From a virus (taxonomy: Duplodnaviria; Heunggongvirae; Uroviricota; Caudoviricetes): a DNA stretch of 64,000 nucleotides. Positions 4,641-9,826 of this stretch are shown piece by piece (position 1 is the stretch's first letter; each line of letters opens with the position of its first letter). Below the pieces are notes generated by a model. That model saw only the letters and a program-made list of their open reading frames with translations. It was not told where the DNA came from and ran no database searches. The stretch lies in IMG/VR virus record IMGVR_UViG_2657245091_000008; one strand, given 5' to 3'. Position numbers and translations under genes: made by a program.

Positions 4641-5408
4641 TCACCCCATAGATATCGAGGTTTCGGTAATAATACGTTTTGCGTCCAACTCCCATGCTGT
4701 GATCACGTCTGCAATCACACTTATCGGCGCTTGTGTGGCATAAATACGCTCTTCTCCAATTGGTGCTGAAACATCCGTAAAGCCGACTTCTTTGGCATCC
4801 TGTATCGAGCAAATCAACGGGACCGGGACACGAACAAGGTGAGTGGTGGCTTCAAATTGTGTACCTGTCATCAGGCGAAGCCGTGCGCCCAGTGAATTAC
4901 ACATCAGACTCATGGTCGCTTTATCAGTTGCCATTAACGTAACGTCATACGTCAGAATGGCCTGGGTGTATTCCAGTTCTGCTAAAGGCATTCCGGTATC
5001 CGGTTCGCAAAAACTGGCTACTTTTTTGCGGTCAATCTGCTGATCATCGTTGATATAATTGATATCCATAGTGCGTGAGATATTGACCAGGGGGAGAGCA
5101 TCCCGGTTAATGTTCTGGTTTTCAGGTTTTCTCCCTTGCCCGGCATTTGCGCGACGAACTGCTTTAAGAAACTCGATCGCATTGTCGAAACGGGCCACAT
5201 AGACACGCTCTGCTGGTGGACGATTCAGGAATGACGCAAAGCGTTTTTCTTCCGGCGCGGGGGCCACCAGTAAGATATCAGAAAAAATGTTGCTGATTAG
5301 CGTCGCAAACGCGTTATCCACGCTTTCAAAGCCCGTGGTCTGGAATTTTCCTGTGCGTGAGGTTTGCCATTCACCTGTTCGCGCCAGGAGGGTTTTATTT
5401 GAAGTCAT
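4641..5408 (-). CDS. hypothetical protein (operon gene 2 of 4)
   Basis: 255-aa ORF; 4-bp overlap with the upstream gene. Confidence 0.55.
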   Translation of the reverse strand: MTSNKTLLARTGEWQTSRTGKFQTTGFESVDNAFATLISNIFSDILLVAPAPEEKRFASFLNRPPAERVYVARFDNAIEFLKAVRRANAGQGRKPENQNINRDALPLVNISRTMDINYINDDQQIDRKKVASFCEPDTGMPLAELEYTQAILTYDVTLMATDKATMSLMCNSLGARLRLMTGTQFEATTHLVRVPVPLICSIQDAKEVGFTDVSAPIGEERIYATQAPISVIADVITAWELDAKRIITETSISMG

Positions 5409-6208
5409 TCGATCACTCCGTTTTGAGTCGTATCAAAATTCCTGGCAGGTATGCAGTAGTAAAGCGAACCAACATGCTGTGTGCCGTAGCTAAAAATACG
5501 GTGCACGTACCACCAGCGGCGGGCTACGCCGTTTACCATCTCTTCATTCCATTCAAGAATTGATCCGACGGGGACGTTATTTGCTGCAATACGCAGAATC
5601 AGAACATCATCGGTTAAGCCATCCTGCTCACCGTCTGCGTCAATTGCATGGAAAGAGTCACGCCCGTCCGGGTTATCCAGCACATAAACGATTTCAGGTT
5701 CCTGGTAAGTCAGTTCGCGCTGGTTGTTATCCAGTTCAGTGAATGACTCTTCTCCTGTTTCGTCGCTGACTACCCCATATGTGCCAACATCTGGTCGATA
5801 TAAGAGAGCCTGAAACGCGTCTGGGCTGGATTCAATAATCAGCATCCAGTCTGCGCGGATTTGGTCGTTAAAGGCTTTATGCCCGTTATAGCGTGCTTTT
5901 AACTGTGGAGTCGGTTCTCTGCCAGCCAGGGAAGATGGAAGTATGGCTATATCTGATTCGCCAGCATCCGGAGTAAGGCCACCGTTGCTATCAGCAAAAT
6001 TATCATGGCTATCAGCTTTGGCGGCGGGTTGCTCTTCCAGAATGCTGAATGAATCCGAACCTGTATTGCCATGTTCCGGCGCGCCTCCTGCATTCGCTTC
6101 AATCGGCGCTGGCGTTTCTCTCTGCGTGCTGTCATGTTCTGACTCCTTACTTGCCAGGTTTGCATCGTCAGCAAACCATTCGTCAAAACGGCCCATAAGC
6201 ATCCTCAA
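5405..6208 (-). CDS. hypothetical acidic protein (operon gene 1 of 4)
   Basis: 267-aa ORF with an Asp/Glu-rich low-complexity N-terminal half. Confidence 0.5.
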   Translation of the reverse strand: MRMLMGRFDEWFADDANLASKESEHDSTQRETPAPIEANAGGAPEHGNTGSDSFSILEEQPAAKADSHDNFADSNGGLTPDAGESDIAILPSSLAGREPTPQLKARYNGHKAFNDQIRADWMLIIESSPDAFQALLYRPDVGTYGVVSDETGEESFTELDNNQRELTYQEPEIVYVLDNPDGRDSFHAIDADGEQDGLTDDVLILRIAANNVPVGSILEWNEEMVNGVARRWWYVHRIFSYGTQHVGSLYYCIPARNFDTTQNGVIE

Positions 6209-6290
6209 AGGTCGATCTGTCAGGTATCGAAAGGAAGATTTTCGGGAGATTGTGATTTTGGATGAAGGAGGGGGAATTCATAAAATGCAC

Positions 6291-6319
6291 TTGCGCACAG
6301 TGCAACGGTGCGCTATAGT
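6291..6319 (+). promoter_or_regulatory. sigma70-like promoter with embedded palindrome upstream of higB
   Basis: TTGCGC -35, 17-bp spacer, TATAGT -10; the spacer carries inverted repeat GCGCAC...GTGCGC, a plausible autoregulatory operator. Confidence 0.5.
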
Positions 6320-6358
6320 TATGGCATTCGGTAATCATCACGGAGGATCAAATGACTA

Positions 6359-6661
6359 ATGACCAAAAAAATTAACATAAAGGATTTCAGGGATGCGTGG
6401 CTTGATGATTTTTTTGAATTTTCAACACCACATAGAAAGATACCTCCTGATATTCATATGACATTGTCACGGAAGTTGGACATTATCAATGCCGCAACTA
6501 CCTGTAAGGATTTAAGATCACCACCAGGTAATCGGTATGAGGAACTGTCAGGGAAGCTAAATGGCTATTCATCAGTAAGGGTGAATAAGCAATATAGGTT
6601 AATTTTTAAGTGGGTTAACGGAAAGGCCGAGGACTTGTATCTCGACCCTCACAAATACTAA
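6359..6661 (+). CDS. higB: type II toxin HigB (RelE/ParE superfamily)
   Basis: 100-aa ORF; small basic protein immediately upstream of an HTH antitoxin gene; RelE-like C-terminal region. Confidence 0.75.
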   Translation: MTKKINIKDFRDAWLDDFFEFSTPHRKIPPDIHMTLSRKLDIINAATTCKDLRSPPGNRYEELSGKLNGYSSVRVNKQYRLIFKWVNGKAEDLYLDPHKY

Positions 6662-6731
6662 AACAGATACCCGGTTACGGACCGGGTTCTGACCAGAGTC
6701 CACTTAATACGCACGCTAGTAAGGGCAAAAA

Positions 6732-7070
6732 ATGAAACAGGCAACCAGAAAACCGACGACCGTAGGTGATATCCTGCTGTACGAATACCTGGAGCCGTTA
6801 GAGCTGAAGATCAACGAGTTGGCAGAAATACTTCATGTTCATCGTAACACCGTAAGTGCTCTTGTTAATAATAATCGTAAGCTAACGATGGATATGGCAT
6901 ATCGCCTGGCAAAAGCATTCGATACTTCTGTAGATTTTTGGATTAATCTTCAGACCGCAGTAGACCTGTGGGAAGTCGAAAATGATATGCGCGTTCAGGA
7001 AGAGTTAAGTCGTATCAATACTGCTGAAAAATTTATTTCTCAGCGGAACCTGAATAAAAAAGCAGCCTGA
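6732..7070 (+). CDS. higA: antitoxin HigA (XRE-family HTH)
   Basis: 112-aa ORF with an N-terminal HTH (ELAEILHVHRNTVSALVNN). Confidence 0.75.
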   Translation: MKQATRKPTTVGDILLYEYLEPLELKINELAEILHVHRNTVSALVNNNRKLTMDMAYRLAKAFDTSVDFWINLQTAVDLWEVENDMRVQEELSRINTAEKFISQRNLNKKAA

Positions 7071-7126
7071 TATAGTAAAACACATACAAAAAGCCCACTT
7101 AGCAAGTGGGCTTTCCTTTGTAATTA

Positions 7127-7486
7127 ATGAACATTAAACCTATCCGTACAGAACAAGATTATGAGGCCGCACTGCGTGCGGTCGAACCGATGTTCGATAA
7201 CGAACCGGAAATGAATACTCCGGAAGGTGATTTCTTTGAGGTTATGAGTCTTCTCATTGAGGAGTACGAGAAAAAACATTACCCAATTGAGCCACCATCA
7301 CCTATTGAGGCCATTAAATTCCGTATGGAACAGCAAGGGCTGACCGTGAAGGATCTGGAACCGGCGATTGGTAAGTCAAATCGTGTTTACGAAGTGCTAA
7401 ATGGGACACGAAATTTGACGTTACCTATGATTCGCCGTTTACATTCCCAGTTTGGCATTCCTCTTGAAAGCTTGGTTGGTATTTGA
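7127..7486 (+). CDS. second HTH protein, HigA-like with C-terminal HTH
   Basis: 119-aa ORF; C-terminal HTH (GLTVKDLEPAIGKSNRVYEVLNGTR); no cognate toxin gene directly upstream. Confidence 0.5.
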   Translation: MNIKPIRTEQDYEAALRAVEPMFDNEPEMNTPEGDFFEVMSLLIEEYEKKHYPIEPPSPIEAIKFRMEQQGLTVKDLEPAIGKSNRVYEVLNGTRNLTLPMIRRLHSQFGIPLESLVGI

Positions 7487-7548
7487 GTTTGGCGGTCTGG
7501 ATGACCGCTATTTTCATAAAATAGATATTAGAAATCACGGTAGTTTAT

Positions 7549-8277
7549 ATGAATACAGATTCATCAACAGAAAAATTGACTGAAAATGATCTAATCAAAG
7601 TATCTTTTGGAGATGCCATAAAAGACAAGCTATTTAATAAAGTGTTTGCATATATATTAATTTCTTTTCTAATTATTAATTGGAAAGATATACTAATATT
7701 GATGAAGTCAAAGGATGATATCCTATATACTTTATCTGTAACATTTGTTGGAGGTAAGATTCCTCTAGTTTATGAAGGCGTTTTGTCTCCTTGGCTTTAT
7801 CATTTTTGCTTGCCATTTATTTTTGGAATTATTGCATCAATTGCAGCTCCGATTGTCACTCTTTGCGTATCAAAGCTAACAAGTAAAATATATACAGAGA
7901 TAAGGTATTTGGATGCCGACATGGATCAAAATAAAAGAAAGGCGTTGCAAATAAAAGAGACTGAAATAATAAAAAGCATTAATGATACACAATTCAACAA
8001 AAGAATTATGGATGAAAATAAAAATGAACTTGAGAGATTGCTTAGGCAGCAAAAAGAGATTATGGCGGCAATAAAGTTATTATATGATGATGTTGGAGTT
8101 ATCATTGAGCTTTTTAAAAGTAGAGGGGTTGGTATTGACTCCCCAGAAAAGTTATATGATTTTGTAATGGCAATAAAGAAGACTTCGCTTTATAATGGCG
8201 ATCATGATTTTAATAAATTGGTTGCTGATATTTCAAATTTATTTGATAAAACGGAAATTGATTTTTCAAAAAGATGA
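7549..8277 (+). CDS. hypothetical membrane protein encoded in a strongly AT-rich islet
   Basis: 242-aa ORF; two hydrophobic segments then a charged coiled-coil-like tail; base composition clearly lower in GC than the flanks. Confidence 0.5.
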   Translation: MNTDSSTEKLTENDLIKVSFGDAIKDKLFNKVFAYILISFLIINWKDILILMKSKDDILYTLSVTFVGGKIPLVYEGVLSPWLYHFCLPFIFGIIASIAAPIVTLCVSKLTSKIYTEIRYLDADMDQNKRKALQIKETEIIKSINDTQFNKRIMDENKNELERLLRQQKEIMAAIKLLYDDVGVIIELFKSRGVGIDSPEKLYDFVMAIKKTSLYNGDHDFNKLVADISNLFDKTEIDFSKR

Positions 8278-8310
8278 AAGCCTAGCCTAGGCAGCTAGGC
8301 TATGTGTGGT

Positions 8311-9504
8311 TTATGCTTTTTTTACATACTCCATGAACATTTTTTCAGCTTGTGCTGGTGGTGTTCCAGCCATGACAAGCGCATCAATGAACGCCTGCTT
8401 CTTCAGTGCGAACTGATCGGCAAGGCGTTGCTGAAGCTCCTTGTTTTTCTGTTTCTCACGTTGCAAGGCCGCTTCTTTTGCTGCCGCCCGTTTTTTCTGT
8501 GCATCTGACAACTTTCTGGCCTTGGTCAATTGGTCACGTAGTTTGTCGATCTTGCCGTTGTCCTTTGCCAGTTTTGTACTTAAAGCTGCCTGGCGCTTCT
8601 GATAGAGCCTCCATTCGCGTTTGGCGGCTTCAACGTTCGTTTTACTGCTACGATTGCGATTAAACTCCTTCTCGTCTTCTTTTGAGAAGTGTTTGGTTGT
8701 ACGGCGGCGATCGTCACCAAATGCAATTTGCGTTGCAGCCTTTTGTAGCGCACGAGCAATACTCATTTGCCAACTGGCGGACTGTAACCGCGTCATTGAG
8801 TGGATCACGTGTTTACAGGCGACGCCTTGCAGCTTCGGGTTGCGAACTTTTGGATAGGCGTATTCTTTTGGCGGTGCCAGGGCAAAGTTACCCGCAGTGG
8901 CGATGTAACGATACCAGTATTGATGACGACCACAGTCACAATCGAAAGACACTCGCCCGGCGCACAGTGATTTAGTGATTTTGAGAGCTGATTTATCGTC
9001 TTCTGCGATGTCATCAACCATCTGATCCCATTCTTCAAAGCGTATCCGGACGATATGGTGCTGGTGGACGGATATATCCGATGCTTCTACGCGGATATTA
9101 ATCACATTGTGGCGAAGAGATACGGGTGTAGCTCTTTTGATACCAGATCCGTCATCCACGGCGTTATTTGCACGCTTAATATCGATTGCCTGGCTGGATG
9201 CCACCAGCTGGGCGTATGTGATGCCAGCCGTCTTGCTGTCATATTTTTCGCGCGTTTTACTCCGTAGCTTTTCGAAACCTTTCAGGTCGTCTCGCGTGAA
9301 GAACGTGCCGCCTTTTTTCTTCCCTAACTTGAGAATATCTTCGGCGGATTTGTTCCTCAGTCTACCTGGCGTCAGCGTCCGGTGAGCTTGTCGGCGCTTA
9401 CGGGTTTGTTCTTTCCTGATAAGGTCGAATAAACGCGTGAAGTCCTTAGAGGACAGGCCGTCAGTGATATAGCGCCCGTCCTGGTTTTTCAGGAAATCAG
9501 GCAT
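8311..9504 (-). CDS. SWIM-type zinc-finger protein with basic coiled-coil C-terminus
   Basis: 397-aa ORF; CxC...CxH arrangement (FDCDCGRH...QGVACKHV) and a Lys/Arg/Gln-rich tail. Confidence 0.5.
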   Translation of the reverse strand: MPDFLKNQDGRYITDGLSSKDFTRLFDLIRKEQTRKRRQAHRTLTPGRLRNKSAEDILKLGKKKGGTFFTRDDLKGFEKLRSKTREKYDSKTAGITYAQLVASSQAIDIKRANNAVDDGSGIKRATPVSLRHNVINIRVEASDISVHQHHIVRIRFEEWDQMVDDIAEDDKSALKITKSLCAGRVSFDCDCGRHQYWYRYIATAGNFALAPPKEYAYPKVRNPKLQGVACKHVIHSMTRLQSASWQMSIARALQKAATQIAFGDDRRRTTKHFSKEDEKEFNRNRSSKTNVEAAKREWRLYQKRQAALSTKLAKDNGKIDKLRDQLTKARKLSDAQKKRAAAKEAALQREKQKNKELQQRLADQFALKKQAFIDALVMAGTPPAQAEKMFMEYVKKA

Positions 9505-9826
9505 TTTCTATCTCCGGTTCCGCGCTCGCGTAATCACGGATCTTGTTCCTCAGCCATGCCACATCAGGAAGAGTTAACGTGGTCCCGGCGGGCATTTCTT
9601 CCATTTCTGACTCATGGCCCACCAGCACCCGGAATACCCAGCGCAAATCTGCATTGCCATACGCCCTGTAGGCTGCAAGGTCTGAACGATATACTTCATC
9701 AATCTTTATCGTGTACTGGAAATTATCAGAGTGATACTCCGATACCCGCTTAATCATTTCCTGGTGAAACAGCGCACGAAAAATATCGTCTTCAATGTAC
9801 CTATCGTCGAGTCTGCTATAGCCCAT
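9497..9826 (-). CDS. hypothetical protein
   Basis: 109-aa ORF whose stop overlaps the start of the SWIM protein gene. Confidence 0.45.
   Translation of the reverse strand: MGYSRLDDRYIEDDIFRALFHQEMIKRVSEYHSDNFQYTIKIDEVYRSDLAAYRAYGNADLRWVFRVLVGHESEMEEMPAGTTLTLPDVAWLRNKIRDYASAEPEIENA

Follow-up and report, generated by a model that had tools for sequence, protein, structure and literature searches.

The window considered here is a stretch of 64,000 nucleotides from the IMG/VR virus record IMGVR_UViG_2657245091_000008, and the element in question is a 2.1-kb island of four genes on its + strand, which divides a P1-type tail operon and has gene 7 on one side and gene 25 on the other. Over positions 5400-9600 the window shares 99.5% identity with the P1-related phage-plasmid D6 (Escherichia phage D6) and as much as 99.9% with ~90-kb plasmids from E. 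coli and Salmonella. The four open reading frames (ORFs) of the island are D6 orf70 to orf73, for which the D6 record gives the labels RelE-family toxin (one), "HigA family" antitoxin (two), and hypothetical protein (one). All four are present as listed in an earlier reading made from the letters of the window only (the sequence-only reading), which began at position 6291, in the promoter region 68 nt 5' of the higB ATG, and placed the end of the island genes exactly, at 8277. We consider it very probable that, taken jointly, orf70/71 are an intact toxin-antitoxin pair, orf72 is the leftover of a toxin-antitoxin replacement, and orf73 (called X here, as are its homologues) is independent.

In P1 itself, genes 25 and 7 lie only 3 nt apart in one late operon, and no island is found at that point. 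The island genes are oriented opposite to the structural operon that they interrupt (late order 26-25 / 7-24-6-5) and are bounded by two hairpins that read as bidirectional terminators, one behind orf71 and one behind orf73 (Table 1). An Rfam scan of positions 6000-8500 found no RNA family.

An ordinary HigB-HigA pair

The first two genes of the island form, as judged from their sequence, a canonical, intact, and self-terminated HigB (PF05015)/HigA toxin-antitoxin pair in toxin-first order, and the sequence-only reading was right to call them a canonical higB-higA pair, as both proteins score above the curated family cut-offs. orf70 reaches 120.5 bits for the HigB-like toxin family (Pfam gathering cut-off, 27), and orf71 reaches 102.5 bits for the HigA equivalog TIGR02607 (cut-off, 47.7) and has YbaQ of E. 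coli and GraA as close matches. In gene order, family scores, and resemblance to the PDB structures of GraT/GraA and YbaQ, the pair is like the other representatives of the PF05015/TIGR02607 type of HigBA (Rts1 HigBA, P. putida GraTA, and E. coli YbaQ), from which it shows no notable difference. At the nucleotide level, the cassette that carries it occurs only in ~90-kb D6-like plasmids (91 PLSDB records), and the pair has already been cited as the addiction module of D6 (PMC6799933).

The cassette swap and the orphan antitoxin

The third gene, orf72, is indeed the second HigA-like helix-turn-helix (HTH) gene without a partner toxin in the window that had been described before. Its product has an N-terminal domain and an HTH_3 domain at residues 63-115 and ends right after the HTH, and it aligns with E. 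coli K-12 HigA (PDB 5IFG_B / 5YCL) over residues 6-112 of 119, that is, across both domains (E 8e-8 to 9e-8). In the paper on the 5IFG structure, the N-terminal domain of K-12 HigA is reported to bind the toxin. Directly 5' of orf72 lie orf71 and its terminator, and no toxin of its own type (PF09907) adjoins it. Relatives that we call type A, which were reached through homologues of orf73 in D6-like contigs and plasmids and carry the PF09907 toxin in L005-7, L013, and L039-45, are organized differently at the same site, with a 100-amino-acid (aa) PF09907 HigB, a gap of 4 nt, a 119-aa protein that is 97-98% identical to orf72, and then a homologue of orf73. This is the layout of the E. coli K-12 HigB-HigA system (YgjN/YgjM), which joins a PF09907 toxin with an antitoxin composed of an N-terminal domain and a C-terminal HTH. 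In contrast to K-12 HigBA, toxin, promoter, and candidate operators are all missing from the window, and orf72 is shorter (119 aa versus 138 aa for K-12 HigA).

When the window is compared with type A (L005-7), nucleotide homology ends at position 6258 and restarts at 7120, 7 nt 5' of the orf72 ATG. Between these breakpoints the window holds 861 bp with a promoter, orf70, orf71, and a terminator, whereas type A holds 383 bp with a promoter and the PF09907 higB, and therefore a complete higBA cassette of another family has replaced the old toxin gene in the D6-type phage-plasmid lineage. Very probably, the site first held a PF09907 HigB, a K-12-type HigA 4 nt behind it, and then X, before recombination exchanged the promoter and the toxin for the orf70/71 cassette and left the antitoxin orf72 toxin-less, 12 nt behind a terminator and without the palindromic candidate operators. 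In type A, the higB promoter contains two such palindromes, TCCCAGCATGGGA and TCCCATATTGGGA, which lie 31 bp apart (L005 5246-5258 and 5277-5289), share the pattern TCCCA-N3-TGGGA, and are likely candidates for HigA operators. The pattern is not found in the window beyond chance, where sites with one mismatch occur at chance level only; one such copy is situated at 7445-7457, inside the 3' end of orf72 and 92 nt 5' of orf73.

Left without its toxin, orf72 is an orphan that decays under relaxed constraint. When codons are compared with the type-A consensus, 63 synonymous and 3 nonsynonymous differences are counted in type-A copies, and 69 and 19 in the orphan copies (type B) (Fisher p = 0.002, a value that is indicative only because the sequences are related and not independent). 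Moreover, the orphan has been disrupted at least three times, by a truncation after approximately codon 59 that removed the HTH in the commonest lineage (type C), by a frameshift (L042), and by a nonsense codon (L038), and the relatives with a disrupted orf72 retain an intact X. What remains of the gene in the commonest lineage (L003 2228-2428) is still open over 66 aa, includes the N-terminal domain, and has a PHROG family of its own, phrog_10398.

To judge from these sequences, orf72 may at most act as an antidote to the old HigB when this toxin is delivered by competing type-A plasmids. The concept of orphan antitoxins as anti-addiction modules is said to have been put forward by Saavedra De Bast et al. 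in 2008, and by analogy orf72 might be compared to such modules, as it is likewise an antitoxin retained in the absence of its toxin, by a replicon in competition with incompatible type-A plasmids that still carry that toxin; it differs from them in that it is visibly decaying in sister lineages.

The sequence-only reading had paired this HTH gene with the membrane gene behind it, as a regulator and its effector. In such a two-gene module, orf72 would be a repressor or antitoxin that restrains a toxic membrane protein until infection (abortive infection), and it is true that orf72 and orf73 are adjacent on the same strand, that their order is kept in all type A and B loci, and that the hairpin between them could be regulatory. 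However, the cognate partner of orf72 is another protein, the deleted PF09907 HigB, which in the relatives is encoded 4 nt upstream. In addition, X is intact where orf72 has lost its HTH (type C), is frameshifted (L042), or is stopped (L038), homologues of X stand alone elsewhere, and no operator-like repeat is present 5' of orf73. We regard this pairing as very improbable and see in orf72 the remnant of an exchanged module; the sequence-only reading is thus borne out in its facts and only in part in its interpretation.

The membrane gene X is independent of HigA and HigB

The last gene of the island encodes, as noted previously, a 242-aa membrane and coiled-coil protein in DNA of much lower GC content, and a GC profile bears this out. 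The GC content of orf73 is 0.295 (0.239 at third codon positions), which is ~5 standard deviations (SD) below the window mean of 0.475 (SD 0.036 in 729-bp windows) and the minimum of the 64 kb; a value of <=0.30 is reached by 0.08% of the 729-bp windows. Two hydrophobic segments, at residues 32-52 and 85-108, are followed in the AlphaFold model by a long helix up to residue 192. Because lysine and arginine residues are distributed with 7 flanking the two membrane ends and 3 in the loop, an orientation with both ends in the cytoplasm (N-in/C-in) is favored, and the protein is probably an inner-membrane protein with this predicted topology.

Similarity searches place X in no described family. 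When orf73 and 21 relatives were scanned with Pfam, PADLOC, and NCBIfam, they gave only coiled-coil noise and no family identity, among it weak ZapB/PspA-like matches that run through the coiled coil; a "2TM effector" model matched weakly (4e-4) in 2 of these 22 sequences only. In PHROGs orf73 falls into families of unknown function only (phrog_8191), a profile search of the PDB gave nothing under E 0.05, and no paralogue is present elsewhere in the window. AlphaFold2 predictions improved from a predicted local distance difference test (pLDDT) score of 60 with 5 sequences to 72 with 22 sequences (predicted template modeling [pTM] score, 0.32), the model being essentially one long helix, for which Foldseek found no match in BFVD below E 0.4.

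Genomic context shows that X is independent of HigA and HigB and that the parts can be separated in every direction. X is intact without HigB in the window, and it is intact without the HigA HTH in type C, which accounts for 10 of the 40 typed loci that carry X and for about half of 30 rows sampled from 98 E. coli plasmids matching the island. Conversely, X is frameshifted or disrupted by insertion sequences in Klebsiella plasmids in which HigBA is intact. X is found alone on the E. cancerogenus chromosome, beside umuDC and gene 25 in K. grimontii, and within an island that also carries a methylase gene and an H-NS-like gene, while the same type of HigBA occurs as a two-gene unit without X in lambdoid prophages of ~150 complete E. 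coli chromosomes. Finally, a hairpin follows the HigA stop in all HigA-X subtypes although the hairpin sequences are unrelated, which suggests that X is either transcriptionally insulated from higBA or expressed by attenuated read-through only.

Two loci without X deserve mention in this context. In the lambdoid prophages just named (for example L059 4001-4665, on a chromosome of Shiga toxin-producing E. coli), the HigB-HigA pair has 80% DNA identity to the type-A pair, lies between dicB/ydfC and repressor-like genes in the early region, and is not accompanied by a third gene. In the P1-like Cronobacter phage JK004 (L025 1028-2624), a HigB-HigA pair of the Enterobacter type (86% identical) is located at a different site, 5' of gene 26, and the gene behind it is an unrelated one of 213 aa and not X.

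The recurrence of the order HigB-HigA-X might instead indicate an ancestral tripartite defense system of which the window is a broken remnant. Such a system would be built like PD-lambda-2, which consists of a HigB-like protein, a HigA-peptidase fusion, and a third factor related to a P4 antitoxin (Vassallo et al. 2022; PMC9519451) and whose third gene is dispensable for neutralization and required for defense (PMC9519451). The type-A HigB matches PADLOC PD-Lambda-2_A at 2.6e-42 and orf72 matches PD-Lambda-2_B at 4e-43, and the three-gene layout with an unrelated third gene is similar as well. Linkage of HigB, HigA, and X is moreover seen in E. coli D6-like, Enterobacter P1-like, and Klebsiella IncFIB/HI1B plasmids, even though HigB and HigA of the latter two are only 27% and 29% identical to those of the E. 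coli type. In contrast to PD-lambda-2, orf72 covers positions 1-119 of the 402 in the model and is devoid of the ImmA/IrrE peptidase domain, and component A is absent from the window, where orf70 matched no PADLOC model. Membership in PD-lambda-2 was rejected, as orf73 and its 21 relatives match none of the PADLOC PD-lambda-2 models, through which alone the third component was compared.

Such a tripartite system also fits poorly with an X that has remained intact, with purifying selection acting on it, where HigB has been lost and HigA truncated, that occurs with umuDC, with a TacA-TacT pair, or alone, whose alleles are shuffled relative to HigBA, and that is separated from higA by a terminator-like hairpin in every subtype. 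Equally, many lambdoid prophages carry HigBA of the same type as a unit of just two genes, and in Klebsiella HigBA persists beside a broken X. That a gene lying downstream of higBA can function on its own is illustrated by Caulobacter higBA-higX, where the membrane-associated HigX is encoded directly downstream of higBA, functions without depending on the toxin-antitoxin pair, and is not conserved in synteny (PMC13384398). The two differ in that HigX is a transcription factor and ancestral in the lineage of its host, whereas X lacks a DNA-binding domain and belongs to the mobile cargo. We regard a tripartite origin as quite unlikely and prefer to treat X as a gene in its own right.

Other three-gene or effector arrangements were also considered and rejected. 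A toxin-antitoxin-chaperone (TAC) module does not apply, as orf73, in the place of a SecB-like chaperone, is a coiled-coil protein with two transmembrane (TM) segments and without a Pfam match, and orf72 has no C-terminal chaperone-addiction extension. A 2-TM effector of a cyclic oligonucleotide-based antiphage signaling system (CBASS) or of a pyrimidine cyclase system for antiphage resistance (Pycsar) does not apply either, as orf73 carries no nucleotide-sensing domain and has no neighboring cyclase gene.

Close relatives of X are rare, with 9 clusters found by a single query and 26 by a profile among 5.8 billion proteins, all of them from Enterobacteriaceae. When 1.84 billion representatives were scanned in full with HMMER, 102 X clusters were retrieved at E <= 1e-3, most of them 200-300 aa long with the same layout, whereas a scan of species-representative genomes retrieved no X relative; a profile of the membrane module, run against the 5.8-billion-protein set, returned fragments only and no domain fusions. 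The hallmark of the family is the N-terminal membrane module with the motifs KDKLFNK, NW, KSK-DI-YTL, and HF-LP, and the C-terminal coiled coil is variable. Among D6-like backbones, X alleles are 33-58% identical overall, 51-86% in the membrane part and 16-83% in the C-terminal part, and gene 7, orf72, and gene 25 of the same backbones are mostly >=96% identical (gene 7 is 79% identical in one sublineage). X is under purifying selection, with ratios of nonsynonymous to synonymous substitution rates (dN/dS) of 0.09-0.26 for its membrane part and 0.2-0.5 for its C-terminal part. Since the synonymous divergence (dS) ranges from 0.35 to saturation and dN/dS is low, the alleles are old, functional, and recombined via the conserved flanks. 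Both upstream modules can be followed by one and the same allele, as is the case for the P0006 type in L006 and L012, and a strict co-divergence of HigBA and X, which we had also considered, was dropped in view of this shuffling.

The low GC content had been taken as a sign of recent acquisition, and this part of the sequence-only reading holds only in so far as alleles have clearly been exchanged. X has a GC content of 0.29-0.35 in P1/D6-like elements and K. grimontii, of 0.36-0.42 in distant relatives, and of 0.40 on the E. cancerogenus chromosome, with 3-kb flanks at 0.41-0.61. AT-richness is thus a property of every X allele in every context, and GC does not date the acquisition.

Distant members of the family were seen in two other kinds of element. 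In a K. pneumoniae P2-like prophage (L048 5001-5651), X occupies the opposite strand and is flanked by the genes for Phage_base_V (baseplate spike) and Phage_tail_S (tail completion), a position that we take to be the AT-rich orf30 cargo site of P2. Its membrane module is 32% identical to that of orf73, and its GC content is 0.36 against 0.50-0.59 in the flanks; this protein has entries in 42 blocks of the collection, and 24 contigs with it were inspected. In a ~95-kb Citrobacter/Salmonella element (L052 3781-5714), X lies ~380 nt downstream of a TacA antitoxin/GNAT toxin (TacA-TacT) pair, and the family therefore follows at least three unrelated types of toxin-antitoxin module.

A variable cargo site and the possible function of X

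The site between genes 7 and 25 is a hot spot of variable cargo in D6-like phage-plasmids, and the island is not uniformly present among relatives, as it would have to be for the sequence-only reading to be refuted by its own criteria. The site is empty in P1, holds umuDC and X in K. grimontii, is occupied by a different gene in NZ_CP159120, and shows at least four arrangements in D6-like plasmids. In NZ_CP159120.1, a ~94-kb E. coli plasmid with the same P1-type order of tail genes, the site contains a single 179-aa gene (L047 4640-5179), which the record labels as "stationary phase growth adaptation protein" and which has no Pfam or PADLOC match. Since the island and its bidirectional hairpins split the P1 late operon 26-25-7-24-6-5 (window 5405-6196 and 8311-9826; P1 L024 3114-5450), genes 7-24-6-5 would need either a late promoter of their own in 6197-6258 or read-through of the island in antisense. 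A second probable cargo site lies between gene 26 and mat, where further HigA/RelE-ParE pairs are found in D6-like elements (L003 4819-5001 and L012 4924-5495) and where the window carries just two tiny ORFs (D6 orf76 and orf77).

Table 1. Features of the island and its borders (window coordinates)
Feature	Position	Strand	Basis
P1 gene 7 homologue (tail protein), left island border	5405..6196	-	D6 orf69 annotation; P1 gene 7 directly after gene 25
Swapped-in cassette: promoter region, PF05015 higB, TIGR02607 higA, terminator	6259..7119	+	Homology break to type-A relatives L005-7
orf70, HigB-like toxin (PF05015, GraT-like)	6359..6661	+	Pfam 4.4e-35; phrog_3066; PDB 6F8S_B 2.8e-14
orf71, HigA antitoxin (TIGR02607, YbaQ/GraA-like)	6732..7070	+	NCBIfam 7.9e-30; PDB 2EBY 1e-53; 6F8S_A
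Hairpin with perfect 11-bp stem, 3-nt loop, and T-runs on both strands; reads as higBA terminator	7090..7114	.	Sequence
orf72, orphaned K-12-type HigA, 119 aa	7127..7486	+	PDB 5IFG_B / 5YCL; PADLOC PD-Lambda-2_B
GC-rich hairpin and T-tract right after orf72 stop; terminator or attenuator before orf73	7490..7510	+	
orf73 (X), 242 aa, 2 TM, coiled coil, and small helical C terminus	7549..8277	+	
Bidirectional hairpin between convergent orf73 and gene 25	8279..8302	.	
P1 gene 25 homologue (tail protein), right island border	8311..9504	-	

Unknown genes in P2/P4 hot spots that are flanked by conserved core genes were mostly confirmed as defense genes on testing (PMC13586616). orf73 resembles such prophage hot-spot cargo in being AT-rich, in lying on the opposite strand within a late structural operon, in having conserved core flanks, and in the rapid swapping of its alleles. 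We suggest that orf70/71 most likely serve plasmid addiction and possibly defense, and that X would be produced weakly in the lysogen, through transcription that reads past the hairpins, and, as the most likely of its possible roles, would exclude or abort infection by other phages as a single protein. In such a protein, the variable cytoplasmic coiled-coil and C-terminal part might be the sensor of the invader and the conserved 2-TM module the effector. A conflict gene fits X best because it combines a conserved membrane module with a fast-diverging cytoplasmic domain and because its alleles are swapped in prophage hot spots, and yet we hold a function in defense or exclusion to have somewhat less than an even chance. 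Small membrane exclusion proteins are known from phages, such as Imm of T4 and SieA of P22. From the known exclusion and abortive-infection proteins orf73 differs in that it has no similarity to them in sequence or fold and in that it varies most in the coiled coil, which is predicted to be cytoplasmic, and not in the periplasmic loop.

A bolder version of this proposal, which we consider rather doubtful, would make orf73 the founder of a new single-gene antiphage family of ~100 clusters at 50% identity, with a conserved 2-TM effector and a hypervariable cytoplasmic coiled coil as the sensor that sets specificity, that is traded as a cassette among hot spots of P1/D6-like phage-plasmids, P2-like prophages, and islands. 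The orphan HigA would at the same time be kept as an antidote that helps a plasmid with an exchanged addiction module to displace incompatible relatives with the old HigB.

Alternatively, X might be cargo that has nothing to do with phages, for example, a lysogenic-conversion factor acting on the envelope or on division, a protein for the timing of lysis, or selfish AT-rich DNA silenced by H-NS. Very low GC content is typical of H-NS targets, X has no homology to any defense family, and its weak ZapB/PspA-like matches are of the sort that is typical for cytoskeletal or envelope proteins; furthermore, umuDC and the "stationary phase growth adaptation protein" occupy the same site. However, purifying selection argues against junk, orf73 is not located beside lysis genes, and 242 aa would be large for a holin. 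Deeply diverged alleles that are swapped between near-identical backbones, with the divergence greatest in one domain, are also better suited to conflict genes. We hence judge a role outside defense to be unlikely, and a function of X in conflict remains our preferred proposal.

We put the composite-island explanation as a whole, with its three separable cargo units, at a probability of roughly 55%, and several observations weigh against it. The structural model of orf73 is only moderate and has no informative structural neighbor. No convincing sigma-70 promoter is present between the hairpin and the orf73 ATG, where promoter-like matches are as frequent as expected from shuffled sequence, and orf73 could be poorly expressed. 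The recurrent linkage of PF09907 HigB, HigA, and X over two very divergent HigBA subtypes and three replicon types could mean that a functional tie between them has been underrated. As for orf72, the relatedness of the sequences behind the codon comparison counts here as well, and the nonsynonymous changes in the orphan copies are still well below the neutral expectation, so that orf72 may retain a residual role.

Phage-plasmids of the D6-like group occur widely in E. coli, Shigella, and Salmonella, yet defense-finding tools report almost no complete defense systems in them (bioRxiv 10.1101/2025.09.12.675607). The literature that we searched, a limited collection, contained no paper on orf72, orf73, the cassette swap, or the X family. 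Nothing at the orf70-73 locus overturns expectations; it is a clean natural experiment on the turnover of addiction modules, and should orf73 turn out to be neutral, the finding would shrink to a tidy case of modular decay.

Taken together, the "extra HigA" of the island is very probably a fossil of toxin-antitoxin replacement, and the membrane gene is autonomous, hypervariable cargo whose function probably lies in conflict. The locus adds a cargo hot spot within the tail operon, between genes 7 and 25, and a natural record of the replacement of a toxin-antitoxin module in which the old antidote was left behind, which makes the competition of addiction modules between incompatible plasmids directly testable. 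It also brings to light an unnamed and strongly diversifying family of membrane proteins, present at a cargo site of P2-like prophages as well, that is a candidate for a cheap phage-challenge screen.

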